Assembly (NCBI GenBank): GCA_036630325.1
Contig: CP142737.1
Span: 682,001-746,000 of the forward strand
Length of the DNA stretch: 64,000 bases
Reading direction: 5' to 3'
DNA from: Vairimorpha necatrix
Lineage: Eukaryota
Shown piece by piece: positions 4,701-41,009 of this stretch (positions are counted from its first letter, which is position 1; every line of letters starts with the position of its first letter). Under the pieces are notes generated by a model. That model worked only from the letters and a program-made list of their open reading frames with translations. It made no database searches and was not told the DNA's origin. The translations under genes were made by a program, and so were the position numbers.

Positions 4701-4938
4701 CAACTTGAGGTGGTCACGAGGGATGAACCCTCGTTGATAGTAGGCTTCTGGTAAGCTACTTATAATAGACTCCTTGGGCTTTTTTTATAAATAAATCGTT
4801 TATTGTTTGCGTCCTTTGTCTGCATCTCTTTTTCCTTTTTGTTGGGGAGAAAAACAAATTTTTTTTAAAATATTTAAGAAATTCCATTTTGGGAATAATG
4901 GAATTTTACATGTGGTCGTAATACCACGGGGCAATACA
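1780..4938 (-). mobile_element. Degenerate Ty3/gypsy LTR retrotransposon (5' LTR ~4706-4938, gag-pol remnants, 3' part lost)
   Basis: Fragments SPAFSIEKKNKDLRLVVDY (RT) and YTDSKN..RINRWKLL (RNase H) with many stops. Putative LTR TGT...TCA is followed by the same GTTGAATTCAAC motif as the 28798-33016 element. Confidence 0.8.
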
Positions 4939-16621: not shown

Positions 16622-16814
16622 TTTTAAAGATAAAATACTTTGTTGCTTCTTATTTCATTTTATTCAATCTTCACTTTATGTTATACACTTAAAGACAATA
16701 TTAACATCTGTTTCTATTAAAATGCTCTGTATCTATCTGTGTTATTAATTTAAAATTTAGTTTAATAGACAAATACACATATGCCTGCATTTTTTATTAA
16801 TTCAAAATATGAGA

Positions 16815-18665: not shown

Positions 18666-19125
18666 TATATTTATTATATAAGTTTTCTTGTTAATAAATC
18701 AACGTCTCTTTCTTCTATTTCTAGATCTTCATTTTTTTAATTATTCTATATTAATTACCTTGTTTCGTTATCTCCTTAAGTTTCTTTTCAAATATAATTC
18801 TTCTAGAGACAACCATTCTATCTAAGAACTCTATAGTCCAACAAAGTTCTTTTATCTTATCTGGGTTATTTTTTAGTCCGATTTTATTACCAAGGAGTTG
18901 TTTGGTTTTTTCTCGGATATTTGTTTTTGAACAAGTCAGTAGAGGCAGTTTATTTTCAAAAGATGTTCTAATGTCAGTAAAACAGACGCACTCCAACAGA
19001 AAGTGTTCTAAATTTTCTTGTGGCCCATCACACAAAAAGCATTTGTTTCTATAACTCATTGTTGTGACATTCTCATGTCATTGTTTACTTTATATTTTTA
19101 TTATTAAATACCCCTTAACTTGGAT

Positions 19126-19755
19126 ATGTCTAACATGGTGGAGAATATTTCAAAACAAGACATAGTGAAGTTACTGGCTGATCTCACCATACAAATAACT
19201 GGTAAAGATCTGGAAGCCACTTTAAAAAAACTAGAAAGAAAGAAAGTTTTCAAATCCTTAACGGATGAAGAAAAAATTGAGGAAATTTTGGACAAAGCAG
19301 ATGTGGCTATAATCGAAGCCCATGAACGTTTAGAAAGGGATAAAAAACTAAGAAAGATTTCTTACGAAGCATGGAAGGAAATTATGTTTTCCATTTTTAA
19401 CAAAAAAATATCTAAAAGAGAATTCTTGAGAGAATTCCAGAAAAAGGAAGAAACCTGTCATGAATTTTTTATAAGGATGAGAAAATTGGGAGAGGCTATT
19501 ATTGATGATGATGAGCTTATATTAGAGATTAGTTACCTCGGATTGAGGAAGTTGAGAGAGGAGTGTGAACAAGCAACACTTAAGTTTAAAAAAATTGATG
19601 AAGAATTCCTAGATACTATAAGGAAAATGGAGGTAATTAAGAGAGAAGCTTATTTCAGAAGACTAAATACAAAACCAAGCGGCGCAACGAGAACAGACCA
19701 AAAAAGACAGCTGAATAACGTCGAACGGTCGATGAAATTATTAAAGAAAATTTAG
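19126..19755 (+). CDS. Gag-like protein; first ATG lies inside the 5' LTR
   Basis: ORF upstream of pol, QKKEETCHEFFIRMRKL gag-like motif; ATG at 19126 follows a CCCC motif. Confidence 0.8.
   Translation: MSNMVENISKQDIVKLLADLTIQITGKDLEATLKKLERKKVFKSLTDEEKIEEILDKADVAIIEAHERLERDKKLRKISYEAWKEIMFSIFNKKISKREFLREFQKKEETCHEFFIRMRKLGEAIIDDDELILEISYLGLRKLREECEQATLKFKKIDEEFLDTIRKMEVIKREAYFRRLNTKPSGATRTDQKRQLNNVERSMKLLKKI
19136..19146 (+). promoter_or_regulatory. Primer-binding site, probably tRNA-Ala
   Basis: TGGTGGAGAAT directly after the LTR is complementary to ...AUUCUCCACCA, the typical eukaryotic tRNA-Ala 3' end. Confidence 0.7.
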
Positions 19756-22346
19756 TTTATATCAAGGGTCTTCAGTTTAGGGCTATTTTTGATACAGGAT
19801 CGGAATATAGTTTTATAACAAAACCGATACAAGCACTCTTGCAGATTAGAGCATCTTTTTTGAAAACGCCGATAACTTTATACACCTGCCTATTAGAAGA
19901 GTTTACGATAGATAAATATGTGGAAATAGAATTTGAGCACAGCAAAGAACGCTACAAAGAGAAGTTTTATATTTTACCAAAGCGGAATGATAAGACGGTG
20001 ATAATAGGACGTAAATGGATGAGAACACCAAAGACCTTAAATCCTATCAGTGTAGTAACCGATTTTAATGAAGAAATAAATAAATTATGTGCGTGGAAGA
20101 ACGAAGGAATAAAGGGATTTGAATGTAATATAGATACTGAGGATGGTAAAAAGGTTGTAGATAAGTCATACCGAATACCCCAAGCATGGGAAGGGAAAAT
20201 TGAAAAAGAAATACAGAGATTATTATCCAACAACTATATTAGAGAATCTCACTCTACGTGGTTAAATAACGTTAGACCCGTCGAAAAAAAAGATGGAAGT
20301 ATAAGGCTTACAATAAATTTAATCAAACTGAACAAAATAGTGGCTCTAGATAGTTATACGCTACCAAGGATAGAAGAGCTTATTTACCGCCTGGGAAAAA
20401 GCAGATATTTTACTAAGATAGATTTGAAGGAGGCATTCTTTCAGGTAAAGCTAAAAGAGGACGACATGATGAAAACGGCTTTCAGGATAAAAAACAGGAC
20501 ATATGAATACACTAGGATGCCTATGGGGTTCAAGAACTCCCCAGCAATATTTCAAAGAATAGTTGATAAAGTTCTTAAGCAAGAAATTGGGAGATGTTGT
20601 TTCGCCTATGTGGATGATATTCTAATTTATACTGAAACAATTGAAGAGCATAAAAAGGCTGTGGGAAGAGTTTGTAAACTACTTAACAACGCAGGATTCT
20701 CAGCAAACAGGGAAAAAATGGAAATAATGAAAAAAGAGATAAATTTTTTAGGTCACAATATAACATATAATAAGATAACTCCATTGACAGATAATACTGA
20801 AGGTATAAAAAAATATACAACCCCGAGGAATGTAGATGAGGTACGAAAATTTTTAGGCATTGTTAATTATTACAGAAAATTTATAAAGGATTGCGCAGAG
20901 ATATGCTACCCACTAGTGATATTATTAAAAAAGAAACAACCGTTCATTTGGGAAAAAGAGCAAGAAACGGCATTTCAAACTTTGAAAGATGCATTAATAT
21001 CGGATTTATGCTTGTATCAACCTGACTTTACACGAGACTTTGTTTTAACAACAGACGCATCGAACACGGGATTAGGTGCCGTACTTAGCCAGGAAATAGA
21101 CGGGCAAGAAAGGCCAATTGCCTTCGCCTCAAGGCAATTACGGCAGGCTGAAGGAAATTATACGATCACAGAAAAGGAAATGTTAGCCACACTTTGGGCA
21201 ATGGAACATTTTAAATATTTCCTCCTCGGAAGGAAATTTACAATTTACACGGATCATAAGGCACTGGAAGCCTTAAACTGTAAGGGAGAGATAAATTCTC
21301 CTAGGATAATAAGATGGATAGAACGATTACAGATGTACGATTTTATAATACGATACAAAACACCTACCGATTTGGAGCACGTTGATGCTCTCTCGAGGCA
21401 TTACGGGACAATAAATGTTATTGAAGAAAAGGAAATTGTTGATATGATCATGAAGGTACACGAAAAATTAGTTCATAGAGGCGCAAAAGCTACTCATGAA
21501 CAAATAAATAAAGAACAATGTAATCAAAGTATAACACTAAAGAAGGTAGGAGATGTTTTAAAAAGATGTTATAAATGCAAAGAGTATAATCCGGCGAGAA
21601 TTAAAGGATTCAGGCATGTGGAAGCATTTGAACCCGGAGAAAAAGTCGCTTTTGACATCATAGGACCGATAGAAGATAGATTTATATTCACGGCTATAGA
21701 CTATTTCTCAAGATTCGCATTTGCAAAAGTATTCAAGACGAAAAGTAGTGATAACATATTGATGTTTTTGGAAATTGTACACAAAAAGGTGAATATACAG
21801 ACACTGATATCAGACGGCGCAAAAGAAAATATAAGTAAAAAGATACGAAATTGGTCATTAGAGAATAAAATAAGACAACATATTACCTCGCCCTACCATC
21901 ATTGTTCAAATGGTAGAATAGAGAGATTTAATAGAACTGTGGGCGAAGGAATAAATAAGCAGGATAAGAGCACCAGACTGTCTAAAAGAGTCGATAAGAT
22001 GATTAAGGCGTATAATTGTATAAGTCATAGAGCAACGGGGATGCCCCCAATAGAAGCATTAGATCTAGAAAATATCCCAGAAGTTAAAAGGAAACATTTT
22101 GAAAACCGAATAAATAGATACAAGAGTTTATTCAAGAAACCTAAATATAAAAAGTTAGAACTTAGAGATTTGTTCATTATACAAGACCATATACACAAAT
22201 ACAAAGGACAACCAAAGTTTGTAGGAACAGGAGAAGTTATAGGCATTTTGACTAACGATACATATGAAATCAATAGTAAAGGGAAAATAAGTAAAAGGCA
22301 CGCTACGCAGCTGAAAAAAATCGACGAAGACGATTATTTCTTATAG
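19720..22346 (+). CDS. Pol (PR-RT-RH-IN), uninterrupted, in the -1 frame relative to gag
   Basis: Frame is open from ~19720 with IFDTGS protease upstream of the listed ORF start; YVDDIL, TDASNTG, HEKLVHRG..CYKC, DYFSR, SDGAKE. Confidence 0.93.
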
Positions 22347-25300
22347 AGGGAGGGATGTTGTGACATTCTCATGTCATTGTTTACTTTATATTTTTATTAT
22401 TAAATACCCCTTAACTTGGATATGTCTAACACTCATTGGTATTCTTTTTGAATATGCTATTGCTGAGGACCACTTTACTAGATTACATCTCAATCTAGTA
22501 TATGTTCTAATTTTTCTATTGTTTATTTTGTTCATGACATATTTTATTTGTGAATTTCTTATGTCATATTGGTTTGCTATTGATGCAGCTAAAGAAGTAT
22601 TTAGAGTTCTTCGACTTCTTAGTACATCAATTATTTTTGTAGTGATAAATCTACTATCACTTGATTCATAATCGTTGCCGACAAATCGTTTTAACCATCT
22701 TTTGTTCTTGAACACCAGGAAGTTTTTCTTTCTTTCGGATTAATTGAAATTATATCCAATATGATTGTCTTATTGTGTTTCCACTTGTTGTATGCTCTAA
22801 ATCTACTTAGAGCTGCTTGTATATGAATTCGTTCGATACTGAACTCGTCCATTACTCTATCTAGTGGAACTAATACTCTTTTGAATATCATTCTGATAGA
22901 TTTTCTTAAGATCCTGTTAATCTTACCTGCTCTTGTACTTGACATTCCCCACAATTCACTGCCATACATTAATGTGGGTACTAGTACACATTTTATTAAG
23001 ATCGCCTTGAAGTAGAGATTGATGCTGCTATTCATCAACTTGGGCATCACTGCGTCTAAGGCTTTCTTGCCACGCATTGCTGCGTCTTTGACCAAGTGTT
23101 CTTCTAGCGTGTTTCTTTTAATTAAGACACCTAGATATCTGTATTCAGTGACTTCCTCAATCACACCAAAGTCTGTACTGAGAGAATACAAACTTCGGAA
23201 TTCTTGTATGTTAGAATGAGCATTCCATTCTAATATTCCGCTTTTTGTGCAGTTAATCTTCATTCTGTTATTAACCGCCCAATTAGAAATTCTATTGATC
23301 TTATTATTAAGATCATCAATGTTGTTTCCGAAGACAACAATATCATCTGCGAACATCAGTCCCGGAACTCTAGTATTTGGTCTTGGGATCAAAACTCCTT
23401 CTCTGCCGTCAAAAATATCATTGATGAATATATTGAATAGCATTGGAGAACAAGGGCACCCTTGTCTCACTCCTTTTTTGTAGCTATAACCACTTGACGT
23501 GTCACCACCAATTTTCACACGCATGGTGGTATATTTATAAATATCCTTTATTGTATTGATTAAATACAATGGGATATTAAGTTTTGTAAGCTTCTCAAAT
23601 AATAAGTCATGACTTACATTATCATAAGCTTTTTCAAAGTCAATGAAACACATTATTGTGTTCAGGCCTCCGAATTCTCTTCTTCTCACTATTTCTAGTA
23701 AAGATGTAATCTGATTCATACACTCTTCACCTGCTCGGAATCCTGCTTGGTATCTAGAGAGTATATCTTGTTCTTCGACAAATTGAGTTAACCTGTCATT
23801 TATTATCTTGAGATAGATCTTACTAATTGTGTTAATTAAAGAGATTCCCCTATAATTATTCAGATCTGTCTCATCTCCTTTTTTGTGAAGGCAAATTATG
23901 TTTGCCATGCTCCAATATTCAGGAGTACTATTTCCACAAATATATTTATTAAATTCATGTAGCACGAATTTAAAGAATTTATCTTCTACTGCTCTAGTCA
24001 GTAAGTGTTTGTATAGCTCGGTTGGAATCTCATCAGGACCGGCTGCTTTGTTATTTCCACATTTCTTCAGTGCGGATAGAAATTCTTCATCTGTTATCTC
24101 TGGGGGAAGATCAACAAGATCTACTTTATCATAGACATTGACATCTATATCATTCTCTGACGCCAATTCGGCGTAAAATTTATTCGCTATTTCTAGCTTT
24201 TTTGCTCGGCAAGTCTGAAGAAGCTTATTGTGGTCAATTAGAGCCACTTGATCCAAACGAATGGAAACACTTCTATTTTTCAGCCATTGCAGAATTCTCG
24301 GGATCTGTTACTTTTAAAGAGCTTTATTCCTCTTAAAGCCCAAAGTTTCGATCTATCTTTGCGAATCAACTTTTTAGTTTCGTCAACTCTCTTTTTGAGA
24401 TATTCGAATCTAATTGAGTTGATTTCATTGTAATTTTTCATAACAGCTCTTGCTGCTAGACGTTTTTCTTTGAAGACTTTTAAATATCTCCATCTCATTG
24501 TAAGTCCAGTATGGACTCTTCTCTTTTTGTAAATCTTCAAAGATGTACAAACTTTTTGAATAATCTCAGGAAGATTATTCATGTTTAATTGTTGATTACA
24601 CAACTTCTTTTTAAGCTTTTTAATCACTTTTGGATTTTCCAGCATCTTCTTATCATAAACTAGTTGATCTGAGATCTTATCAACGGCAAGTTTAATTTTT
24701 CTTTTGAGCACTAAGTGATCACTTAATACCCAAGACTTGGATATAATGATCTTCTCATTATCATTACTTTTTAGTCGAAAGATGGTATCAGTTTTCCTCT
24801 TAGATCTTTTACCATCTTTGAGGATCCTTGTACCATCGTTGCTGTTATATTTTATTGTAACTGGCAAACCAACTACATTTAGTTTTTTCTTGAGACTAGA
24901 ACTCTGCATATTCATATCTCCCATCACTATGATCTCACTATAGTTATTTCTGAAATTCTCTTTTTCTAAGAGAAATAATAATCTGGCCAAGACTTCTCTC
25001 TTGAGATCCTTGTCTTGTGGTACGTAGACATTTAAGATTAGATACTTAATCCAATTGCCTGCTGACCTAAACTCAACTTCAGTTTGCAGAATATTTGAGT
25101 CGGTGCCTTTTTTGGAACATCTGATTGCTCCATTATTTCTAACCAGAGTTATTAATCCTGGTTTATTTTTCCCACCACTAGGTGTTTCAACTGTAGCGTA
25201 TTTTTCAAGTTTCAAAGGTCTTGTAGATTGTCTCCAAGTTTCTTGTAAACACAAAATTTCTGGTTTCTCCTTCTTAAGAAAAAACTCAAGTTCTTCTCTC

Positions 25301-28300
25301 TTATTAGAGAGATGATTAATGTTTAGACTTAAGAGTTTTATGTTATCTTTATTCTTTTTATTTACTTTACTAGATTTCATTAGTTCTTTTCTATTATCAT
25401 TTAAACTTTAAAGCCTTTAGCTTCAACTGTCTTAATCAATAAATTTGCGTATAGTTTTTCAACTATTATTTTTGTAAAAGAAGTGTCTCTTCGTCTATAC
25501 TTTCTTGCTGTAATGATGGAATTCTCCAAGGAGAGTTCTTCTTACATAAGTCTTTAAGGAGATCTTTCACTCCATAAGGAATTCTTTGTATCTTGACAAT
25601 ACAATATTGTTCTTGTACTTTCTTCCACCACATATTCTTTCTAATAGAAAAATATTTGAGACTATTTAGTCTTGTTGGCGTTTTAAAAGTATTTTTAATC
25701 TGATTAAATCCAATTGAATTATGAATTTTTTTATTTAAAGATTTAAAAATAGATTTTCTGTTATAAGAAAATAGTTTCCTATAATAGCAGGACTTTAGTA
25801 AAGATACATTATTCATTATTAAAGTCCTTGGATTCTCGGGCAGGCTCACCCATCATATTTTCTAAATAAATGAAAGATTCATGGTTTGGTTTTTCTTTAT
25901 TTAATTCTTTAGTTATGTACCTACATGCTTTCACAAGTGGTACAAACTTTTTATGTGTTCCGGAGAGTCTCAGTAGTTCTCCTAGAACAATTTATTTATT
26001 AGAAGATAAGAATCCAGCGAAGAATTCTTCATCATCGCAGATGTCGGAACCTACAAATCTTTATTTAATTTTTTTAAGTACCTTTTGGCACACGTTTTCT
26101 CTAATCATCATGAGTACTACTTCTGACTCTTTAAATTGTTTTATAAGAGTGATATCTTTGCTTTGCACTTCCATCATCGCTGCCCAGGCATCTCTAGATT
26201 GGGGTTTCCCGTCCAAACCGAGTCCAGACACAAGAGCTAACTTGAACTTGCATTTAGAGATGTATCTACCACCCTTAATAATTTTCATGAGAGCTTCGTC
26301 TGATAGCCCCTCAGCCCAGTTTTTCTTTGGTAAAACTGAGCTTCCCCTTTTCTGAGATTTCTCACCTTTTTTGTTCTCCATTTTGGGGGTATAATTTTTT
26401 TTACGATTTTGTAATCTTTCTTTTTTCATGATCTTTTTTAGGAATGATAAATTTTCTCCTTAAAACTTCATAAATAGTATTTTTGGGCACTTTTAAATTG
26501 CCACTAGTTTCTACTTCAAGTGATTTAAATCTATTAAAGTTGGTTTTATTTGTGGTTTTACCACTTCTGTTTTTCTTCAAGTCTATCTGGACTTTGGGCT
26601 TGAATGTGTGTTTGACAGATGTCCATCCGTCTTCATTTGTATGGTAAAGTTTTACTCCATTCTTAGGAGCTTTTCTTTTACCAGCTATAATAGCAGAGAT
26701 AGTTGACAGATGTCTAACTACTGCTTTTTACTTAAAAGAAGCTATATCTAGCTTAACATCTTTTGTTTTAATATTTTTATTAATTATAGTATTTGTAGAT
26801 GTCTTTGAAACATCTATACATTTTCATTTGCCATCTTCGGACAATCGATCTTCTTCTTCTACTTTGACAGTAGAGTCGATGTTTTTGACATTAATCAAAA
26901 AATCTTCCTTTATAATTTCTAATTTAGAAATATCATTATTTCCAGTAGCTAACTGAAAAGTTTCGCTACTGGTATCATTTGGAACATCGGAGTTATTATC
27001 CTTTTGTTCTACACATTCTTTTGAGTGATTCTCAATCATTATGTGGTATAATGGATCATACCACATGATTGTTAAAAACCAATAAATACTTAAACGCTGA
27101 TGCTTCTTCGGAACGATCAGTTATGGTCGACTATTATTGGTCAGCCAAATCTTATTTCTTCCTATTGGTTACCATGTATATAAATAAAGAAATTCCATGA
27201 ACAAACATGGTACAACTACAAACACTCTTCCTTCTACAAATCAGATAAATAAAACTCTTTCCATAACAATAAACAATCCTTTCACTCTAACTCTTTTAAC
27301 TCCGGTTTTCACGGCTCCCCAAACCGTAGCATCATTGAATGCTTTCTTTCTACAGGCAAGCTCCCCGGTAAACACGCCACATTATCTCAATTTTATTTTT
27401 TGATGCTTCAGTAATTTGATCACTGTCATCCATCAGATTATTTTTAATAAAATTTTTTAGTTTGATGTTTAGTCTTTCTAGCTCGTCATGGAAGAGCTCT
27501 GTTGTACCTCCTGCGGAAGTACAACTCCAATAAAGATAAGTTAAACCTATAATGTTTATTTCTTATATCTTCCATACCCCTAAGTATGGAATTTTCTTTT
27601 ATATTTTTTTATTGTTTATTTACAGGGCAAACAAATCAAGAAATGTCAAAAATGATATGTTTGACATGTGGGGTACCACATCCTACCCTCTTCTTTTAAT
27701 GTCTTTTATGTGGATCCAATTTCCTCCTTCGTTCACTCTGGCCCAGATTCCCTTGTTTCCAATTTCTTTGATTGTGTGTGGTCCTTTATACTGTTCATCC
27801 ATCTTACCTGCGTTGAATTCTTTAATAAATACTTTTTCGTTTATTTGTAATTTTTTATCATTATTAAGGTTTGGTATAATGGGAGTTGTTTTATTTTTAG
27901 GCTCTTTGTTGGTGGTTTGCCTTTTGAATGGGTCAAAGAAACTGTATTTTTTCTCCAGTTCGAATGGTGAGCATCCGATTTTTCTTTTATAATTGACGTT
28001 TAGCTTGATGTTGATTTTATTTGTTGTTTCTCTGATGTTATTAGATCTATTCATTCTTAAGCACTCAGCTATTATGCTGTTTTGTCTTTCGGCCATTCCG
28101 TTACTTTGTGGATGATATATTGGGGTGTTTATAAGTTTAATTCCCCTACAGTTTCCGTATTTTTCTTTTAGTTTTTTGCCTGTGAATTGAGTGCCGTTGT
28201 CCATGATAATTTTTTCCGGCTGTTGGAATTCTTGTATCCATTTATCTATACATTTTATTATGGTATCTTCCGTGATGTTTTACAGTAGGTATACCCTTGA

Positions 28301-28797
28301 GACTCTTGAATAGACATCTGTTATGGACAGATAATATGCCTTGTGATGAATATCTTCATAAATGAAGTTTTCGAGTTCAAATGGTCCAAATATGTCCATT
28401 GCAACCGTTCCGTACATTTTATCGGAGGTTATTTGTAATTTCTGAATTTTTACTTTTTCTTTCTTGTTTAGGTTGCATATTTTGCAGTTTTTTGTTACAT
28501 TAATTATCTTGCTTTTTATTCCGTTGATGCTGTAAAAGGGAGATAAATTTTTGTTCAATACGACTATTCCTGGGTGACCAGCAATTTCATGTATCTTTTT
28601 TAGAAAGTTTTCGGATTCGGAGTTTTTAATTATTATTTTATCATCTTTGTTCTTTTTCCAGTTTTTTGTCCCAGATTTATTTTCAGATATTTTCTCTGCA
28701 TATAAGTCTATTGTATTTATTAGATCGTTTTCGTACTTAGCTTTTTCTGTTCTGAAACATCTTGATAGATGATCTGCTACGGTGTTGTCTTCATTAG

Positions 28798-31700
28798 TGT
28801 GATGACTTTTATTAATGAATGTGAAACATCATCACATTAATCATTTAGTTTATAATATTTTCTCAAACTAAATGTCATTCATTTGTTTGTTTGTTTACAA
28901 ACAATTAAATATTTAAAATATTTAAAAATAGCCCCTCACCAAAAAAAAAAAGGATGATGAACCATAAAAATAATAAATCTCAAAATAGTAAAAATAACAT
29001 GTACAAACAACAATTAAATAATCTCATTGAGACGTACCTCCGCTTGGGGTACGTCAAGTTGAATTCAACGAGTGAAATCCCAAGCAAGGTGAAACTGTCG
29101 AAATACCAAGGGAAGCAGGCAGAAAAACTAAAAGGAAAATATATTACATTTGAAACCAAAATAGAAGGTTTAGAACAAAGGTTCACTACAGACATCTATT
29201 ACATTGAAGATATACGGTCAATAGATATTATAGAATGGTTAAAAGAGATCGAGAAAATCTCAGAAGAAAACCAATGGAATTCTAAACAGCTCATGATGGT
29301 AATTAGGAAAATGAGTAAAGACTCATTGATCGAGCAAGAGAGGATAGTGGAAGATTTTTTCTCCACACGCGATTATCTGATCGGTCTTAGATTTCCGATA
29401 GAACATAGCAGAAGCATATTAACAGAACTAGCTTCTATTAAACAATTAAGCTATGAAACCATCCAAGAATACATCCAAGAAATTAAAGAACTAGTTAACA
29501 TTTATGCCGTAATAAATAAACTCTCAAAAACAGAGTTCAATAGACGAGTAGAAGAGACTTTTTACAATGGACTTGGTCCATATACAGATGGAGAGCTTTT
29601 CAAGCATGATTTTAAAGACTATAAAGATGCAATTAGATTTCTTTACACGTTAGAAAAGAAAATAGTATCTAAACAAGTAATACTAGAGAAGAAAGTTTTA
29701 GATCCTATAAGGAAAGAACCCTATAAAGGGACTTTAGAGGTAGTAAGCAATAACAAGTGGTGCAAATACCACAAGAAGAATGATCACGATTCAAAGGATT
29801 GCGAGACTTACCAGAAATTTATAAACGAAAAAATTAAGAATAGGGATGAAAAACAGAAAGGAGAGACTAGGAACTTGATTATTAGCGAGAAAGGAATAAA
29901 TACTAAAACACCCGAACTACAAGGGGTAATTAAAAAATACCAAACGTCATTTTTTATGGACTCGGGAGCTTCAAGGAACTTCATAAAAAGAGAAGTTGCC
30001 CTTAAGCTAAAAATACCTATCGTCGAGGATTCTCCAATAACTATAAAATACGGAAATGATGACATGGAAGAGTGTACTGAGACAGTTAATGAGGAAATTA
30101 AAATAATAGGAGCTAAGTCAAGCCACGTAGTTAAATTTTACTTACTGAATAACTTACCAGTCGAATTTGTATTAGGAAACGAATTTCTTAGTAGTAACGA
30201 AGTAATAATGAATTATAAGAATCAGACTATAATAATCAACGGTGATGTGATCAGTACAAAGAACCAAGAAGACAGTGAATCAGACATCGAAGATTTAGAT
30301 AAAATTTTAATTGAAAGCCTGTGTCTGTCTTTAGAAAATCTTAATAACGACGAATTAAAACGTTATATTTATTCATATGTAAAAACCAATTCTTCTTATA
30401 AACAAATAAAAATAGCACCGATAGAAATAAGGATGAGACAAGACATTAAAACACCTAAACCAAAATTCTACAGTGTTCCACATAAACATACAGTCGGAGC
30501 TAAACGAGAACTACGAAGGTTACTAGAAAATGATATAATCGAACTCTCAGATTCGCCATATGCCAGCCCGGCATTTTTAATAGAAAAAAAGAATAAAGAT
30601 TTGAGACTGGTGGTCGATTATAGAGAAATAAACGAATATGTCATAGATGAGGTTGCGGCAATACCCAATATAACAGAAAATATTATGCAAATGGGAAGCG
30701 CTAAATGGTATACAAAAATCGATCTGAAGAACGGTTTCAACCAACTATACATAAAACCCGAAAGTCGGAAATTTACGGCGTTTACATTATTGGGAAGACA
30801 ATACCAATACAAAAGGGTCCCATTTGGAATTCGTTCAGGACCTTAAATTTTTCAAAAAACAATCATCAAAATACTAGAAGACATAGATAATATATTTGTT
30901 TACATTGATGATATAATAGCCTTTTCACCAGACCTTAAAAGTCATATAAAAACCGTGTCAAAAATTTTAAGAAGACTCAAAAGTTATGAAGTAGCAATAA
31001 ATTTTGAAAAAAGCGAGTTTTTTACTAATAATACCACGATACTAGGAAACGTGATTTGTGAAAATACTATGAAACCAGAACTAACGAGCATTCAGAAATT
31101 GTTAGCACTCAGAAACCCTAAATCAAAAAAGGAGCTGCAAAGAATAATTGGCATAATGAACTGGTACAGACCTTATGTTTCTAACTTGAGTGATAAAATT
31201 GCGAACATTACAGAACTGCTTAAGAACACAAATACAGGAATACTTTGGACTGACAAACACAAAGATATAGTAGCGCAAATCGCAGTTGATATTAGTAAAG
31301 CTACACTTAAGTTACCAGACTACACGAAGAAATTTGTTATACAGTGCGACGCTTCGAATAATGGCATAGGAGGTGTACTCTTTCAAGAAGGAGGAATACT
31401 TGGATACTACAGCAAAAGCTAAACAGTACCGAAAAGAACTATTCAATAGTCGAAAAGGAATTATTTGCTATTATTAAGACGTTAAATCATTTCAGAAATA
31501 TCATATTAGGTTACTATGTAGAGGTATCTACTGATAATAAAAACTGTTTACTACCGAACAAGCAAATATCTAGCAGGATTGAAAGGTGGAAGTTAATATT
31601 GAACCAGTTCAATATCAAAATAACGTCCATATCTGGCACAAAGAACGTAATAGCTGACAGCTTATCTAGAAATTTGATATTAACGACAAGTCAAGAAGTT

Positions 31701-33016
31701 ATAGACAAAACGAGATACTTAAATGAACTTAATCAGTTCGTTATGAAAACAAAAGAAACCCCCAATATTTGGGCTAAAGACAAGAAAAACAGAATAATAA
31801 TAGATAATGATCAGTCAAGGAATTTTTTGGATTATATGCATCGAAGAACTATACACGTTGGATCTACAATTCTTTACAATAATATTAAGCATATATTCAA
31901 AGTTACAGGTGTAAAAAAGTTAATTAAAGAAATTACAAGTAACTGTATCAATTGCATCAGAACGAAAAATAATAAGAAAAAAAACCGATCTTATAATAGT
32001 ATTGTAGCCTCTGCACCATTCGAAAAGATATCGAGTGACATCTATGGACCATTTAGTCTAGAGAACTACATACATAACGGTACATGTCATAAGGGATATT
32101 ATATCACTATTATAGACGTATATACGAGAACGCTAAGAGTATACTTTACATATAAGGTTACAGCGGAGCGTATAATTACATGTATTAAAGACTGGATAGA
32201 AGTTTATGGAAGGCCTAAGACCTTTATATCTGATAATGGAACTCAATATGATTCAGAGAAGTTAATTAAATATTGTGCAGAGCACGAAATACAAAAGATA
32301 GCAACTCCTATATATCACCCAAGTAGTAATGGTATCAGTGAGAGGCTGAACCAAACAATCACGCAATGCCTCAGGTTATATAAAGGTAGAAATCTGAAAT
32401 CAGTATCAGAAGGAATCCACATAAGACATAACCACAACTATAATACTGCACTTAAAGTATCTCCAACTACCTTTTTAATAGGACACAGTCCATATGATCC
32501 TTTCGGGATTAAAAGTGATAAATTACAAACTAGCTGTAGAGAAAATACCGAGAAGTCGGGCGGAAATAGGAAGTCCCCAGTTTTCAAAATAGGTCAACAA
32601 GTTTTCGTGAGAAACTTTAAAGCAAAGAAATTAGATGATCAATATTTAGGACCGGTGACAGTAACTAACGCAGGAAAGAAAGGAAAGTGGTATAAGTTAG
32701 AGGGATTTGAAAATGAAATACATGAAGATGACATCAAATTCGGCGGAGTGGGCAGGATGTGATGACTTTTATTAATGAATGTGAAACATCATCACATTAA
32801 TCATTTAGTTTATAATATTTTCTCAAACTAAATGTCATTCATTTGTTTGTTTGTTTACAAACAATTAAATATTTAAAATATTTAAAAATAGCCCCTCACC
32901 AAAAAAAAAAAGGATGATGAACCATAAAAATAATAAATCTCAAAATAGTAAAAATAACATGTACAAACAACAATTAAATAATCTCATTGAGACGTACCTC
33001 CGCTTGGGGTACGTCA
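28798..33016 (+). mobile_element. Ty3/gypsy LTR retrotransposon nested in the 27500-35822 element
   Basis: Identical 259-bp LTRs 28798-29056 and 32758-33016 (TG..CA); TSD attag 28793-28797 and 33017-33021; PPT ggagtgggcagga. Confidence 0.97.
28954..32762 (+). pseudogene. Gag-Pol of the 28798-33016 element
   Basis: WCKYHKKNDHDSKDC, MDSGA, VDYREIN, YIDD, QCDASNNG, HRRTIHVG..CINC, SDNGTQY; in-frame TAA 30844-30846 and frameshift ~31420. Confidence 0.93.
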
Positions 33017-35869
33017 ATTAGCTATTTGTTTTATACTGTAGTTGTATTCTAGCATCATCGCGTCCCATCTTTCTATTCTTCTGCTTATTTTGCTTTTAAA
33101 AAGGCAGTTCCTATTATCCGTGTGTATTTCTACATAATTTCCAAGTATAATGTTTCTACATTTGTCCATTGCGTAGACTATCGCGAAGTATTCTTTCTCT
33201 ACTATTGTGTAGTTTCTTTCTGTTTTATTGAACTTCATGCTTATATTTAGTATTATTCCGTGTTCCTGTGATAATACTGCTCCCATTCCGAGTTCTGAGG
33301 CGTCGCAGTGTAGTGTAAATTTTTTGCTATAGTCTGGTAGTACTAGGTAGCTTTTATTTTTTAGTTTGTCTATTAGCTTATTTATCGTTGAATTGTCTTC
33401 TTTAGTTAGTTTAACTATCTGTTCTTTCCCTTTTAGTTTTTCTGTTAAATTTAAAATTTCTAAGCTTAAATTTGGGATGTATTTCCTATACCAATTGAAT
33501 ATTCCTATTATTTTCTGTAGGTCTTTTTTGGTTTTACATTTCATGTTTTCGATTAGTTTACTGTCTTTAGTGAGAGGGTACATTTTACCGTTAAAGATTC
33601 TTGTTCCTAGAATTTCTGTGTCTTTGGTGCAGAATTCTGATTTAGCGAAGTTTACAATTACGTTGTGCTTCTGTAGCCTTGTAAATAATTCTTTGAGTGT
33701 GTTCAGATGAGACTCGTAGTCCTTCGTGGCTATAATTATGTCGTCTATGTATACCGATATATTTTTGATTCCGAAGAGTATTTTGGTTCATTGTTTTCTG
33801 GAATGCTTTGGGGCCATTTTTTAATCCGAAAGGGAGTCTTTTGTATCTGAATGTTTTGCCGAATATAGAGAATGCTGTCCATTTCCTGCTTTCTTCTGTT
33901 AGGAGTAATTGGTTAAATCCATTCGTCAGGTCCAATTTGCTTATTACTTCGCTTTTTCCGATTTGATAAATGATATCGTCCATCTTTGGAATTATTTCTA
34001 CTTCGTCTTCGATAAAGTTATTAATTTCTCTGTAGTCTATTACTAGTCTTATCTTGCCGTTTTTCTTTTTCTTAAAGAATGCGGGGCTGGTGTTCCTTTC
34101 GTTGCATTCCTCGATTATATTAGAGTCCAATAGTCGTTCTATTTCTAGTATTGCGTCTTCTTTGTAGTTTGAAGGTACTGCATAATTAATTTTCTTAAGC
34201 TTTATGTTGTTTTTAGACACTTGTAATTTGACTTGATCTGTGTTTATTGGGTCGCTTTCTTTAATTTTGCTTTTATAGTCATCTATGATTTTATGTAATC
34301 TTGCTTCATCTTTTGTAATGAGTGTTTTCTCAAAAGGTTTTTGGAATTCTGTTTCTTCTTGATTAGTTTTCATACTCATGGTTGAGTTGTTCCAAATTAT
34401 TTTCCTTCTTGTAAAGTCAAGTATAATTTCATTTCTCGATATAAAGTCTCTGCCAAGTAATATATTAACCGGTAAGTTTTGTAATAGATATAATTCTATT
34501 TTACATGTTTCGTTTTTCCCCTTCGGCTGTAATTCTAATTCTATTAACGTACTGGTGGTTTCGTTTGATTTATTTCCAAACATTACCTGGATCTCTTTAC
34601 TTTCTCTGGTGGTAAGATTCCATTGTTCTACGAGGTCTGCTTTGATGAAGTTTAATCCTGCTCCACAGTCTAGAGTTCCTGTTGACTCGTGTTTCTTATT
34701 GATTATGAGTGGAATGTCGAGTTGTTCGACAATAGTAGGATTTTCTAAAATAACGTAGTTTAAAGAGTTTTTATTTTCTCTGGGTTCTGAAATCTTCCTC
34801 GTTGTATTCTTTAGGTTCAAGTTGGTATCGGGAGCTACTGTCTTCTTGTTGAGGTTAAATTTTTCGTTTTTAACTTTGCTAATATTTGATCGATTTGTTT
34901 CGTTGCTTTGCCCGCAATCTCTCGTTGTATGTCCCAGAGTTTTGTGGACTTTACACCACTTTTTCATGAATCTTATACTTGAGATGTTGTTTATCTTCCT
35001 CGGTATGTTAAATCTTGTTATGATGTTTTCTTCCATTCTTTTCAGGGCTAATATGATTTCAAGTGGTGTTTCGAGGTTTTGTATCTCAAGATATCTTACC
35101 GTTTCTAAGTTAAGTCCTCTGTAAATGGATTCCTTTGATCTTCGTTCGTATTCTTTCTGGCTGCAATTAGATACCTTACTGTAGATGGTTACTCGTTTCA
35201 TGATTTCGTTTATGTAGTTATCAAAGAAAATGTAGTCAGTTTGTTTTAGATTATCCAGTTCTACTATTAAGTTCTCGACTCTCTTCTGTGAGAACACCTG
35301 TGAAATGATGTAGTTCTTGTTTTCTTCGTAGTTATCTTTCAAATTGGCTTTGTCTATAATCTGATCTTCAATGAGATCGAATAAAAATAGCTTTTTTGTC
35401 TCTTCGTTCCATTGATTCCTTTGGAAAATTTCTTCAATTTTCTTAAACCATCCTAGTAGATCGATTTCGTAGATATCGTCAATCATTTCTACATTTTTGG
35501 TGATTCCTAGGTCCACTTCACCTGTCTTAATTCTTATAGAGACTACTTTTGCTTCTTGAGTTTTAGAATTGTGTCCTGCGATTTCTTTTCCTCGCGTGGG
35601 TTGGAGTTCATGATGTTTGTACTCTCTTATTGAATTCAATCTGTCGTACCTCCTGCGGAAGTACAACTCCAATAAAGATAAGTTAAACCTATAATGTTTA
35701 TTTCTTATATCTTCCATACCCCTAAGTATGGAATTTTCTTTTATAATTTTTTATTGTTTATTTACAGGGCAAACAAATCAAGAAATGTCAAAAATGATAT
35801 GTTTGACATGTGAGATACCACAAGCTCCAAATATGTCTGCTGAATCAATACTAATTCAGTAGTGCTGGA

Positions 35870-37152
35870 TAAAAAAATAAAATAAAATAAAATTGTTTAT
35901 TGTAAAAAAAAGACAGAATCAGCAAAACGAACAAAAGCTTCCAAGCCACCAAAAACTCCACTAATAAAGAAAAAATCATCAATAAGTGCGCTTACACGCC
36001 AGCATACCTTAACGGCCTCGCTTGTAGGAGAAAAGTTTGTTCCCATAGGATACATCCTTAGTCATAATATGACTAGAGACCCACTTTCATGGGTCTGATG
36101 AAAAACGAAAACGCCTGGCTCAATACACCATTTAAGAACACGACTCAGTTCAGCGGAACAATACAGCATCAGTATCATGCCCGACCTCTCCCAGGTCAAA
36201 AGGTTGGTAAGACTTAGAAATTTGCACCTAAAAAAAAATTAAAATTAAAATTGTTTATTGTAAAAAAGACAGAATCAGCAAAACGAAGAAAAGCCACCAA
36301 GCCACCAAAAACTCCACCAACCAGAAAAACATCAATAATTGCGATTACACGCCAGCATACCTCAACGGCCTCGCTTGTAGGAGAAAAATTTGTTCCCGTA
36401 GGTAACAGAACCTTAGTCATCTCTGACTACAAATTTCGCGGACCTGACGAAAACACAACGCCTGGTTCAATACACCATTTAAGAACACGACTCAGTTCAG
36501 CGGAACAATACAGCTTCAGTATCATGCCCAACCTCTCCCAGGTTAAAAATATGAAGAATTACTCGAAAGTTAACGGTGTCCTTCTCACCAGCAATGGGTC
36601 TCCCACCCCTAGAGTATAGCTAAAAAAAAAATAAAAAAATAAAATTGTTTATTGTAAAAAAAAGACAGAATCAGCAAAACGAAGAAAAGCCTCCAAGCCA
36701 CCAAAAACTCCACCAACCAGAAAAACATCAATAATTGCGATTACACGCCAGCATACCTCAACGGCCTCGCTTGTAGGAGAAAAATTTGTTCCCGTAGGTA
36801 ACAGATCCTTAGTCATCTCTGACTACATATTTCGCGGACCTGACGAAAACACAACGCCTGGTTCAATACACCATTTAAGAACACGACTCAGTTCAGCGGA
36901 ACAATACAGCTTCAGTATCATGCCCAACCTCTCCCAGGTTAAAAATATGAAGAAATACTCGAAAGTTAACGGTGTTCTTCTCACCAGCAATGGGTCTCCC
37001 ACCCCTAGAGTATAGCTGACCCTACTTACCAACCAGCAGCCGAAGGTTGGTAAGACTTAGAGATCTGCACCAAAAAAAAAAAAATAAAATTGTTTATTGT
37101 AAAAAAGACAGAATCAGCAAAACGAAGAAAAGCCACCAAGCCACCAAAAACT
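35870..37152 (-). repeat. Tandem array of four units, rDNA-proximal part of the same repeat family
   Basis: Units ~35870-36228, 36229-36621, 36622-37071 and 37072-37152, near-identical to the 16815-18665 units. Confidence 0.95.
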
Positions 37153-37154
37153 TT

Positions 37155-37250
37155 AGAGATCTGCACCTAGTTAAAAAACATCGGTCCCACCCTCCGCGAC
37201 GTGGACGCTCTCTTATAGTATACAACACCTACTATGCATACAAAAAAAGC
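37155..37250 (-). ncRNA. Putative HDV/CPEB3-like self-cleaving ribozyme at the LSU rRNA 3' end
   Basis: P1 GCUUUUU/GGAGGGU, P2 AGAGA/UCUCU, P3 GCG/CGC, L3 UCCACGU, P1.1 CC/GG, P4 ACC..GUU-UUUU-AAC..GGU, J4/2 G-C-A-G-A; every element is in canonical order. Confidence 0.8.
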
Positions 37251-37471
37251 AGTAACCTCAAAATGTCGGCATACACCTTCATTCTTACAGTTCTGCTTAA
37301 AAGAGTAGCATTCTCCTATATATATCTTTGAGCTACGCTTCAGGCTTAAGAGGCTTTCAGCCTTAATCGAAACGACGTAGCTAAGCAACATAACTTAATA
37401 GTTAATCGCACTACCAGTGGTCATCACTTAGAGTTCCTCTCGTACTATCAAAGTTCACTCAAAAATACTTA

Positions 37472-37513
<42 letters not shown>

Positions 37514-37948
37514 TCTCACGTTCCTCATTACCGGGTGAACAATCCAACACTTCGTAACATATACACTACGATGATCAGAAGAGACGACATCGAAGAATCA
37601 AAAAGCAGAGTCGCTATGATCGCTTGCCTGCTACAAGCCAGTTATCCCTGTGGTAACTTTTCAATCACCCAATACATAATGAATGTAATTGGGATCGCTA
37701 GGCCAAGGTTTCCCTACTAAATACAGTCATATGCATAAAGTAAAGCAGATTTATTCCCTTATAATAAACTGATGGTTACCATCCATCATTCATCTACCTT
37801 AGGACAGCTGTGTTACTTTTTAACAGCTGTACCGCCCCAGCCAAACTCCCCATATATTCTAATAAATAAATATTCAAACATACTAGTGGTTTCACAATAC
37901 TTCTCCCACCTCTCTACAATATACCGAATATTTATTAAAACATACTAA

Positions 37949-37980
<32 letters not shown>

Positions 37981-38079
37981 GATAAATAACAAGCCCGTTC
38001 CCTTGTCTCGTGGTTTCACAAAATTGTAAGTAGGGACAGTAGGAATCTCGTTGCTCCATTCATGCGCGTCACCAATTAA

Positions 38080-38132
<53 letters not shown>

Positions 38133-39726
38133 ATTCGCTTACACAACTTTAACAATAAATGCACTGGGCAGAATTCACTTCTTGTAAATACAAAAAGCTA
38201 TGTTTTTAATAAACAGTCAGATTCCTTACATAGTAAAAGTTCTAGCATGCTAGAGCCAATCTTTATCCCAAAGTTACAGATCTAATTTGCCGAATTCCCT
38301 TACTTACTTTAATTTAAAATATTTGTTATGATACAAAGACACCTGATGCGGTATAGGTACGGTTAAAATTATTTTATTTTTATCAAGTATATATAATTAA
38401 CTATTTCTTATCATGACAATCCATAGTTAAAATAAAATTTAATTCATTTATCTTAAATTTATTGAAATATACTGTCATTATCAAGTTGCCTTATAATAAT
38501 TTAATAAAGAATTATTAATCTTTTTTGTTTTTAAAAATAACACCGATTCACTTCAATAATAATTGAAAACCCTAGTCTATATCTATACAAATATATTGTT
38601 ACTGCCTCCAAGATCGGCTCATTTGTTTCTTCTATATATACTCACATATATACTTCAATACAAACAAATTGCACAGCTACCTAAATATTCATTAGAAACA
38701 TCTCATAAAAGTAGTAATCTTCTTCCATTTTATACAATAATACATTCGGTAGGTACGTTGTAACACGTTTCTTAGCGGATTTCTACTTCCATAACAACCG
38801 CCCTACTGTCTCAATGTATTCATCATATTTATGGTATAATATCTACTATTTAGAATATTTAATGTTTCATAAGGTTCATCCCTTTTTGCACATCATTCTT
38901 ACAATCATGTGCCCACTAGTTATACAATAGATTCATTATATAAATTTAATTTATATAATTCCATAGAATTAAAGATTTTTCATAGTTAAAAAACTATAAC
39001 AGTGTCCTACATCTATGTCCTATATAATAATAACTGCTGTCCTGAGAGACATTTCGCTGTGAACCAGCTACCACACAGTTCGATTGGTCTTTCGCCACTA
39101 TACACATCTTAAATCATCGATTTGCACGTCAGAATGATTATGGTCTTCCAATAAACTGTTGTTTATCTTCAACCAGAACATGTATAGTTCACTGTGTTTC
39201 GGGTCTTATAATTATAACTAATCAAGTTAATAAAGATTAAAAAATTTAATTTTTATCTTGCTATAATTATAATCTCCTTGGTCCGTGTTTCAAGACGGGT
39301 CCTTAAAAATAAGGCTAAACTCCACACATTTTCACAAGTTCCTTCGCAGTACTTATTTTCTATCGGTATACCATTATATTTAACCTTAGATATTTCATTC
39401 TACCTTTATTCAAACTGCACTACCAAGCAGCTCTACTCAAGTACATTATTCTATTCTATTAATAACGAATATAATATTCTCTATAAATATAATTAATAGA
39501 ATAAACCATTTACAACTCCAATTAAGGATTACAATGGAGGGTCTTTTCTTGTTCACTCGCTGCTACTAAAGAAATCCTAGTTAGTTTCTTTTCCTCCTTT
39601 TAATGATATGCTTAAGTTCAAAGGGTTATCAATACATTATAAATATATTAATTAGGTAAATAATATAATTTCGTATTCTATTACGACCTTCATCGTTATG
39701 GTATCCTATTGATCCCATGTGTGGGT
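37251..39726 (-). rRNA. Large-subunit rRNA with 5.8S-equivalent fused at the 5' end (reduced microsporidian type)
   Basis: Conserved cores GAACTTAAGCATATC, GACCCGTCTTGAAACACGGACCAAGG, CTCTCTTAAGGTAGCCAAA, GGGATAACTGGCTTG, GGGTTTAGACCGTCGTGAGACAGG and sarcin-ricin loop AGTACGAGAGGAAC; ends approximate. Confidence 0.97.
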
Positions 39727-39762: not shown

Positions 39763-41009
39763 TTATGATCCTGCTAATGGTTCTCCAACAGCAACCATGT
39801 TACGACTTATATCAGATCTAATACATATTGTTCAAGTAGTTTTCACTAATTTCACAACACATATCATCTTAGATAGCGACGGGCGGTGTGTACAAAGAAC
39901 AGGGACACATTCAATTCTACTTATTTAATAAAATTTACTAGCAATTCCAAGTTCAAATATCTCTTACAAAATATTATCCCATAAAGATTATATATCTATT
40001 GTATTGCGCGTGCAGCCCAAAATGTCTGAGGGCATAACGGACCTGTTTTAATCCTTTCCTTCCTACACTGATTGTGTCTGTCTATTAATAAAAGGGTCTC
40101 ACGTCTTGTTGAAATTAATCAAAACTTCACAGCATCCATTGAAAACGGCCATGCACCACTATTATCATTCTCAGATTATATATCTTCTCTGAATAATAAA
40201 ATATTGGTAAGTTACCTCGCGTTGAGTCAAATTAAGCCGCACAATCCACTCCTTGTGGTATTCTTCCGTCAATTTCTTTAATTTTCAATCTTGCGATCAT
40301 ACTATCCCCAGAGCCAAAAAACTCAAATTTCTATCATCTAATACAATTAATATCATATCACATCGTCGGCATAGTTTACTGCTGGAACTACAATGGTATC
40401 TAATCATCTTCGCTCCTCCAGCTTACGTCCTTGTTCAAAAAATACATACAAGTGTACAGCTTTCGCTTCTGTTCGTCCAGTCAGGGTCGTCACATTTCAT
40501 CTCTCTCCCAACTATACAGTACACCTCATATTGCTTCTTAAATATAAACTACGGACTTTTTAACTGCATCAATCATCATACACACTCTTGGAACAAGTAT
40601 TACCGCGGCTGCTGGCACTTGATTTGCCCTCCAATTAATCACCTCATATACTTTTACAATATGAAACAATAGAATATTACTTCCCATAACTGCCTCAGAT
40701 AAAATCCATAGGTCAAGTTTCGCCCCTGCTGCAATCCTTAGACTTAGTAGCCGTCTCTCAGGCTCCTTCTCCGGAATATTACAAAGTAATACCGTTACCC
40801 GTCATTGCCTTGTTAAGCCATTACCTTAACAACTAGCTGATAGGTCTCACTCTTACTGTATATGTCTTATGCTACACTTTAACGCAGCTATACTAATTTA
40901 ATACATTAAATAAAATGAGTATTACTGAGCAGTCCATTTTTCCATATCAAAAACATGCATGGGTTAATCTTAAGGAATAGCGTCTACGTCAGGCAGAATC
41001 AACCTGGTG
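39763..41009 (-). rRNA. Small-subunit rRNA (~1247 nt), Vairimorpha/Nosema-type
   Basis: Starts CACCAGGTTGATTCTGCCTGACG; contains GTGCCAGCAGCCGCGGTAA, GTACACACCGCCCGTCG, AAGTCGTAACATGG; ends GCAGGATCATAA. Confidence 0.99.

Follow-up and report, generated by a model that had tools for sequence, protein, structure and literature searches.

We analyzed a 64,000-nucleotide stretch of the genome of the microsporidian Vairimorpha necatrix (GenBank assembly GCA_036630325.1, contig CP142737.1, positions 682,001 to 746,000 of the forward strand; hereafter the window, to which all coordinates refer). Three long terminal repeat (LTR) retrotransposons of the Ty3/gypsy type in this window, designated elements A, B, and C, carry a perfect 12-nt palindrome at the place where a primer-binding site (PBS) for a transfer RNA (tRNA) would be expected. 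Comparison with the elements of a distant microsporidian, Anncaliia algerae, strongly supports the conclusion that selection keeps the self-complementarity of this site, and not its letters or the protein that it encodes. Arguing from the position of the site and the logic of its pairing, we propose that a group of Ty3/gypsy elements specific to microsporidia primes its minus strand at the palindrome, and that pairing between two sense RNAs replaces the tRNA; we assign this proposal a probability of about 0.5. A more specific version, in which the genome dimer primes itself (two sense RNAs pair at the PBS palindrome, and one of them is nicked and primes the other), is put forward more tentatively. 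To our knowledge, DNA synthesis by LTR elements relies on a host tRNA as primer, and self-priming of the Tf1 type is the one proven exception.

Palindromes at the primer position in the window

Element A lies on the forward strand. Its 5' LTR (28798-29056, 259 bp, beginning with TG and ending with CA) matches its 3' LTR (32758-33016) at 259 of 259 positions, the two are flanked by the 5-bp target-site duplication ATTAG (28793-28797 and 33017-33021), and a polypurine tract, GGCGGAGTGGGCAGGA, occupies 32742-32757. Element A is nested inside element B (27495-35827), which lies on the reverse strand. The 5' LTR of B (35642-35822, 181 bp) is identical at 177 of 181 positions (98%) to its 3' LTR (27500-27680), which is preceded by a purine tract and an integrase remnant, and the 5-bp target duplication of B is GAGCT (35823-35827 and 27495-27499). 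A contig from one public sequencing run, X1, joins 27494 directly to 35823, skipping 8328 bases with five letters shared at the joint. Since the skipped segment comprises B, with A included, and one copy of the duplication, the joint represents the exact empty site of B; either B is a polymorphic insertion or X1 derives from a relative that lacks it. A contig from a second run, X2, contains B-like sequence without the A insertion (joint 28648 to 33024, with 151 other letters between). The loose ends of public-run contigs at 29056 and 32758 (A) and at 35641 (B) coincide with LTR borders within one base. The LTR pairs, the 5-bp duplications, and the empty site of B prove that the terminal CA is the end of the LTR in A and B.

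In element A, a single base, A (29057), separates the terminal CA (29055-29056) from the 12-nt palindrome GTTGAATTCAAC (29058-29069). In element B, the spacer is G (35641) and the palindrome is ATTGAATTCAAT (35629-35640, reverse strand). Element C, also on the reverse strand, has the sequence ...CTCA followed by a spacer A (4705) and by GTTGAATTCAAC (4693-4704). Thus, each palindrome starts one base behind a terminal CA. A preliminary description of this DNA had reported the three palindromes one base after a 5' LTR that is followed by no TGG-type PBS. All three lie where it had placed them, and the trinucleotide TGG is indeed absent after the LTR end in A, B, and C; the one-base distance is established for A and B, and for C, which has no partner LTR within the 64-kb window, it is assigned by analogy. 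We found no other PBS candidate in the three elements and no copy of the palindrome elsewhere in their LTRs.

The three sites share a 10-nt core, TTGAATTCAA, and differ in the outer pair, which is G-C in A and C and A-T in B. This replacement of one complementary pair by another, already remarked upon in the preliminary description, is real and is not synonymous. The Gag start codons lie inside the 5' LTRs (28954 in A, 35717 in B), and the Gag frame crosses the palindrome as K-L-N-S-T in A and as R-L-N-S-I in B, such that the outer pair brings with it the changes K to R and T to I.

We then considered how often such a motif would arise by chance. For the exact 12-mer, 0.007 occurrences would be expected in the window. 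Counting every perfect 12-nt palindrome regardless of sequence gives 46, compared with 35.8 ± 6.0 in Markov simulations of the window, and such palindromes begin at approximately 6 per 10,000 positions. Three matches at the homologous position with one 10-nt core therefore exclude chance, despite the frequency of palindromes in A+T-rich DNA. The Gag-protease-reverse transcriptase (RT) sequences of A and B are 29-31% identical; at roughly 30% identity, the presence of TTGAATTCAA in both is, judged by this comparison, neither common descent nor chance. Given the peptide L-N-S and the codon usage of the elements themselves, the probability of the codons TTG AAT TCA is 0.016 per family. A further copy of TTGAATTCAA in the window, at 13094-13103, provides an internal negative control, as its flanks (T..C) are non-complementary and it has no LTR context. 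The sequence GATGAGCTCATC at 48495-48506 fits the family formula NNTGNNNNCANN, and no LTR, open frame, or retroelement coding or similarity was found around it; it is either a chance occurrence or a relic.

Structure predictions favor pairing between two molecules. The predicted free energy of GTTGAATTCAAC is -14.0 kcal/mol as a homodimer versus -1.1 kcal/mol as a hairpin, and that of ATTGAATTCAAT is -10.8 kcal/mol as a homodimer and 0 as a hairpin. When homodimers of the 5' regions are predicted, the two palindromes pair with each other in each of A, B, and C, gaining -10 to -12 kcal/mol; this is consistent with our proposal and lends it no independent support, since any palindrome would be predicted to pair in this way. 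Self-complementarity that permits sense-sense pairing of two genomic RNAs, as in a dimer site of the retroviral type, is present in all three elements. The other hallmark of such a site, a short palindrome in a hairpin loop beside a separate PBS, is not; instead, the whole 12-22 nt are self-complementary.

Two kinds of intramolecular partner were sought and rejected. Consistent with the earlier remark that the LTR contains no evident complement, as a Tf1-type mechanism would require, the best duplex between LTR and PBS is no better than those obtained with shuffled LTRs (fractions as good: 0.33, 0.82, and 0.23). Likewise, a downstream partner of the kind present in fungal GalEa elements fares no better in A, B, and C than shuffled sequence (fractions as good: 0.82, 0.45, and 0.21). 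Immediately upstream of the palindromes, a hairpin occupies the U5 end of the LTR in A (29031-29055; GACGTACC ... GGTACGTC) and in B (35643-35667, reverse strand), and an upstream hairpin, ACGAGGG..CCCTCGT, is found in C (4716-4734, reverse strand). In the predicted minimum-energy fold of A, GCTTGGGG pairs with a downstream CCCAAGC and thereby encloses the palindrome, an alternative to the U5 hairpin. The public sequencing runs used number four, all of them Logan contigs and none recorded as RNA; among the contig matches listed, no strand-changing joint occurs at the palindrome.

Covariation among the elements of Anncaliia algerae

For comparison, we used the transposable-element consensus sequences of A. 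algerae (supplement of Parisot et al. 2014, PMC4202319). All 54 Consensus_retro FASTA headers were surveyed; three of these sequences lack a 5' LTR, which leaves 51 that were sorted by what follows the LTR. A 12-nt palindrome is present in 32 of the 51 (29 perfect, retro_BC with two Ns, retro_BO with one T.G pair, and retro_AM with two mismatches). An interrupted hairpin starts at +1 in another 10 (retroA, B, E, J, M, Q, AL, AU, BL, and CA). The remaining 9 (L, O, S, T, V, Z, AB, BN, and CK) have an ordinary TGG-type site, mostly TGGCGTCACCGAC. An ordinary site also exists in the window, where a gypsy element of 3.4 kb (19060-22431) carries TGG at 19136, directly behind its 76-bp LTR; the preliminary description had remarked that this element appears to prime with tRNA. 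The coexistence of TGG sites with palindromes in both genomes implies that tRNA priming is on offer from the host and is left unused by the palindrome group.

The palindromes of A. algerae keep the position seen in the window. The CA and the 12-mer are separated by 1 nt in 27 of the 32 elements, by 2 nt in three (F, K, and BE), and by 3 nt in two (C and G). Where the 3' end of a consensus is visible and clean (H, P, W, AA, AW, BB, and BP), it stops at the same CA. The length that the authors give for the retroK LTR ends inside the palindrome, and the retroK consensus runs on at its 3' end into a degenerate palindrome copy. Element B of the window has the LTR end GGTACGACA in common with retroP and retro_AC of A. 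algerae. In the 10 families with interrupted hairpins, the LTRs end in ...CCAACC or ...CCCAAGG, the stems measure 5-7 bp and the loops 4-8 nt, and the stems covary while the loops are unrelated (for example, CAAGATT-ACGA-AATCTTG and CAAGACG-AAAG-CGTCTTG).

The core TTGAATTCAA occurs 21 times in unbroken lines of the supplement; in 17 of these cases it is located 130-250 nt into an LTR-element consensus. At this PBS place, the flanking pair is complementary in 17 of 17 cases, as it is in 3 of 3 in the window. Away from the PBS place, complementary flanks accompany the core in 0 of 4 cases in the supplement and in 0 of 1 in the window.

Twelve distinct perfect 12-mers occupy the PBS place in A. 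algerae, with the general form NNTGNN-NNCANN. They are ATTGAATTCAAT, TTTGAATTCAAA, GTTGAATTCAAC, CTTGAATTCAAG, TTTGAGCTCAAA (retroP), AATGAGCTCATT (AQ, BJ), TATGAATTCATA (X, BY), GATGAATTCATC (AF, BD), ACTGAATTCAGT (BB), TCTGAATTCAGA (BP), TTTGCTAGCAAA (BA), and ATTGCATGCAAT (BF). Compensated changes are found at four of the six pair positions, including both central pairs. All four Watson-Crick pairs occur at positions 1/12; T-A, A-T, and C-G occur at 2/11 (with T.G in BO); A-T and C-G at 5/8; and A-T, G-C, and T-A at 6/7. Positions 3/10 and 4/9 are T-A only and G-C only, respectively. The centers AATT, AGCT, CTAG, and CATG are all self-complementary, and the G-C to A-T change at pair 1/12 in the window is one instance of the same pattern. 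In several families, the palindrome grows to 14-22 nt through flanks whose letters are specific to the family, the left arm taking in the last letters of the LTR (for example, ACATATTGAATTCAATATGT in retroW and CACAAGTTGAATTCAACTTGTG in retro_AD). The single T.G case, in retro_BO, fits pairing at the RNA level.

The reading frame through the palindrome is fixed in 10 families, from the authors' table of open reading frames and LTRs taken together with the sequence. In 8 of these (C, G, H, P, R, U, W, and X), position 2 is the first base of a codon, as in the window, and the palindrome encodes L/M-x-S. In the other two (retroF and retroK), the frame lies one base earlier and the peptide is I-E-F-N. 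Read in the frame of the window, the variant palindromes give L-S-S, L-L-A, L-H-A, and M-N-S. The preliminary description had cautioned that the motif also encodes L-N-S in Gag; given that the peptide changes and two frames are used while the palindrome is kept, a constraint on the protein is excluded and this caution is answered. Its suggestion that covariation be weighed against synonymous change in other microsporidian elements has, in A. algerae, come out on the side of covariation, with twelve perfect palindromes, compensated central pairs, and two frames.

These observations also bear on the nature of the partner. Twelve different sites within one genome cannot all be matched by a single host primer, which makes a tRNA or a tRNA fragment very unlikely. 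Furthermore, the two bases of pair 6/7 are neighbors and those of pair 5/8 enclose only two bases, so neither pair can form in cis, and the pairing under selection needs two strands. On this pattern of sequence change, the selected state would therefore be a duplex of two like strands, the sole other formal option being a symmetric protein site in DNA, which is unlikely.

Attempts to extend the comparison by other routes yielded little. Searches for DNA relatives through an alignment of A and B gave 567 pattern matches in metagenome contigs and 335 in viral contigs, none of which was confirmed in either set, and a word-based protein search returned two distant matches that were uninformative.

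A model of priming and its alternatives

In the general scheme of reverse transcription, the minus-strand primer is set directly behind U5. Because the palindrome fills this place at a distance of one base, it is simplest to suppose that a partner RNA supplies the same sequence as the primer. According to this model, two co-packaged genomic RNAs would pair through the palindrome over 12 bp, or up to 22 bp with extended flanks. One strand would then be cleaved at the palindrome's 3' border or close to it, possibly by the RNase H of the element itself, by analogy with Tf1. From the new 3'-OH, synthesis would proceed along the partner RNA, past the spacer base and on into U5 and R, to yield strong-stop DNA, and the 12 copied letters would provide the overlap for the second, plus-strand transfer. 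The interrupted hairpins of the sister families could represent a one-molecule version of the same arrangement. If the dimer-primer version is true, dimerization and priming would be fused in one 12-nt signal within the gag frame. The preliminary description had suggested tRNA-independent or dimer priming; tRNA independence and selection for self-pairing are now well supported, whereas for dimer priming we infer the RNA-RNA pairing, the cut and its position, and the subsequent priming.

A number of points weigh against this proposal. TG at positions 3-4 and CA at positions 9-10 are invariant and GAATTC is dominant, none of which pure pairing would require. The invariance hints that a protein or nuclease recognizes the sequence, or that the primer ends in CA; it may mark a cut site, a contact of RT or RNase H, or the end of a tRNA-like primer (...CA). 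The model depends on a postulated RNA cut, and the available runs are contigs. Moreover, a cut RNA would lose its link to gag-pol, so an intact partner would be required. The covariation is counted by family rather than by independent event, and the A. algerae counts were made by eye on consensus sequences containing Ns, such that small counting errors are possible. The LTR ends in A. algerae are imprecise, the authors' LTR lengths running 0-3 letters past the CA in several families, and the LTR end of element C is placed by analogy with those of A and B.

The likeliest of the other explanations holds that the palindrome is a dimerization or packaging signal only, comparable to a retroviral dimer initiation site or to the palindromes (PAL) of Ty1 and Ty3, and that another primer acts at the same place, for example a host small RNA with a 3' end (...CA) complementary to the invariant TG. 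In Ty3, short palindromes of the 5' region, including ones in gag coding sequence, drive dimerization (PAL6; PMC11381356). The central covariation demands a two-strand duplex, as a dimer site does, and the TG/CA invariance could mark a separate primer contact. We nevertheless regard a role in dimerization only as unlikely. The palindrome, at +2 to +13, fills the primer place itself, with no second candidate site between it and the LTR; known dimer sites are 6-nt loop palindromes beside a separate PBS, which is missing here; and two invariant base pairs are too short for a specific primer contact. Priming by fold-back within one molecule, in which the right half of the palindrome would fold onto the left and the RNA would be cut behind it and prime itself, seems improbable. 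The four central letters stay self-complementary through change, which would be pointless in a loop, and the bare 12-mers reach only -1.1 or 0 kcal/mol as hairpins versus -14.0 or -10.8 kcal/mol as duplexes. Even so, the interrupted hairpins at +1 in 10 of the 51 A. algerae elements indicate that a hairpin in cis is viable in relatives, and palindromes extended to 18-22 nt could fold into stable hairpins.

The invariant TG...CA, the twofold symmetry, and the dominant GAATTC core resemble the half-sites of a double-stranded DNA site for a dimeric protein, which could be a transcription factor of the host that acts just downstream of the LTR promoter, or else a protein of the element. Positions that such a protein does not contact need no complementarity, yet all positions that vary show compensation; extensions of the palindrome to 22 nt use arbitrary letters, and one family has T.G; and a fixed one-base distance from the LTR would be meaningless for a transcription factor. 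We accordingly rate a DNA site as quite improbable. An ordinary PBS that matches an internal part or a fragment of a host tRNA, in the style of copia and Ty5, might account for one 10-nt core across families that are 30% identical in protein, as a shared host primer would give. We consider it very improbable, as no single RNA fits the 12 different perfect palindromes of A. algerae, tRNA arms have loops of at least 7 nt rather than forming perfect palindromes of 12-22 nt, and a primer that fits A would mismatch B at its 3' end. Finally, the motif is in frame in Gag, and the neighboring residues are similar in A and B, as would be the case if the palindrome were due to chance or were a by-product of a conserved L-N-S peptide. 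This explanation has a negligible probability in view of the rarity of 12-nt palindromes (about 6 per 10,000 positions), the codon choice (P = 0.016 per family), and the persistence of the palindrome while the peptide varies and, in two families, in another frame.

Genomic setting and relation to known systems

The assignment of A, B, and C to the Ty3/gypsy type, with lengths of approximately 4.1-4.2 kb, follows from the gene order protease-RT-integrase in A (by Pfam) and from the RT matches of B and C to A. In element A, a frame for Gag, protease, and the N-terminal part of RT (28954-30846; gag-asp_proteas, RVP_2, and RVT_1) ends at an in-frame stop, and the integrase frame (31599-32762; rve and Integrase_H2C2) differs from that of the RT part. 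Thus, although its LTRs are identical, A contains an in-frame stop (30844-30846) after the start of RT, and a frame change at approximately 31362-31422 precedes the integrase part. The contigs of X1 and X2 have one extra base after 31413, so this copy of A, or this assembly, differs there from other copies. In element B, the Gag-protease-RT frame (33642-35717, reverse strand; 29-31% identical to A) is interrupted by the insertion of A, and the integrase remnant (27686-28786, reverse strand) lies 3' of RT. Element C is decayed; its protease and RT remnants (2769-3807, reverse strand) are 27-41% identical to A by tblastn and contain stops, and stops occur in all frames, including that of the palindrome.

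The window has a G+C content of 31%. Rfam matches comprise only a ribosomal RNA (rRNA) unit of the microsporidian type, with the small-subunit rRNA (39763-41009) followed by the large-subunit rRNA (37108-39648), both on the reverse strand; no tRNA was found in the window. The tRNA-type element at 19060-22431 is bounded by 76-bp LTRs (19060-19135 and 22356-22431) and the duplication CTCAT, and is adjoined by a non-LTR retrotransposon resembling a long interspersed nuclear element (22691-25380, reverse strand), with frames matching Exo_endo_phos (24280-25380) and RVT_1 (22691-24256). Two copies of a DNA transposon, 85-95% alike, lie at 8172-9197 and 49609-50631; a frame at 8200-9150 (reverse strand) encodes an ISXO2-like (DDE_Tnp_IS1595) transposase domain, which we take to be the transposon type called Merlin in microsporidia. 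Tandem-like repeat families with units of 110-300 nt are present on both sides of the retroelement cluster (16809-18699 and 35873-37178), and the second block abuts the rRNA unit.

Among systems in print, the closest precedent is the Conserved Hairpin Site (CHS) that takes the place of a tRNA PBS in the GalEa Ty1/copia elements of fungi (2017, PMC5445492). The CHS is a 9-bp palindrome, CTGATCAGT or CTAATTAGT, which is palindromic when the last A of the LTR is included and is more conserved than the LTR. No complement to it was found in U5, and its authors, who state that none of the known models fits, propose that it stands in for the PBS (PMC5445492). Elements A, B, and C likewise have a palindrome at the border between the LTR and the internal region instead of a PBS. 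Unlike GalEa, which belongs to the copia superfamily, they have the gypsy gene order, with integrase after RT. In GalEa, a second conserved segment 12-41 bp downstream forms a hairpin in cis with a fixed A/A mismatch, and no such segment was found in A, B, or C. The palindrome described here is also longer (12-22 nt), lies in coding sequence, and starts at +2, whereas that of GalEa overlaps the last A of the LTR. The one-molecule arrangement suggested above for interrupted hairpins might perhaps extend to the GalEa CHS.

In Tf1 and Tj1, a cut in the RNA within an RNA duplex makes the primer (PMC4600332). The likeness to these fungal Ty3/gypsy relatives lies in tRNA-independent priming from the element's own RNA by a cut, which is proposed here, and in the single Gag-Pol frame. 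The difference is that their PBS complements the 5' end of the mRNA in the LTR, whereas the site in A, B, and C pairs with itself. The dimerization palindrome PAL6 of Ty3 has been likened to those in HIV-1 and Ty1 (PMC11381356). In mouse mammary tumor virus (MMTV) and human immunodeficiency virus type 2 (HIV-2), palindromes lie inside a tRNA-type PBS and sense-sense RNA pairing has been proposed, although those of MMTV are not needed for dimerization (PMC8096270). All of these resemble A, B, and C in that the 5' part of their genomic RNA contains self-complementary sequence, which may also lie within gag. Their palindromes are of 6 nt, or of overlapping 6-nt units, beside or within a PBS complementary to tRNA, and those of the MMTV and HIV-2 PBS are by-products of the tRNA complement; here, the palindrome is the whole site. 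In Ty1 of Saccharomyces, the Gag frame starts inside the 5' LTR and the PBS region is translated, and the initiator tRNA-Met binds at a TGG site. Thus, A and B resemble Ty1 in where Gag begins and differ from it in that Ty1 has a tRNA site.

In the literature searched, the coverage of which stops short of Xu et al. 2006 on the Nbr elements of Nosema bombycis, we found no description of such a palindrome in microsporidian elements. The terms "PBS", "primer binding", "tRNA", and "palindrom" are absent from the main text of Parisot et al. 2014, and in a recent genome paper (PMC13174016), "PBS" denotes a buffer. Palindromes that replace a PBS and LTR elements that prime themselves are known already; there is a fair chance that the priming mechanism proposed here is new.

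A self-complementary site at the primer position recurs across a radiation of elements, represented in A. algerae by 32 of 51 families and in the window by at least three. For annotation, the sequence of LTR end, one base, and NNTGNNNNCANN provides a mark of such elements in microsporidian genomes, and LTR-finding software that scores a tRNA PBS will misrank or miss them. If our proposal is true, it would give LTR elements a third way of priming the minus strand, in addition to tRNA priming and self-priming of the Tf1 type from the 5' end, and it would explain the hairpin site of the fungal GalEa elements. It would also show how signals that act in cis can be packed into coding sequence where 5' leaders are almost absent, as they are in microsporidia.

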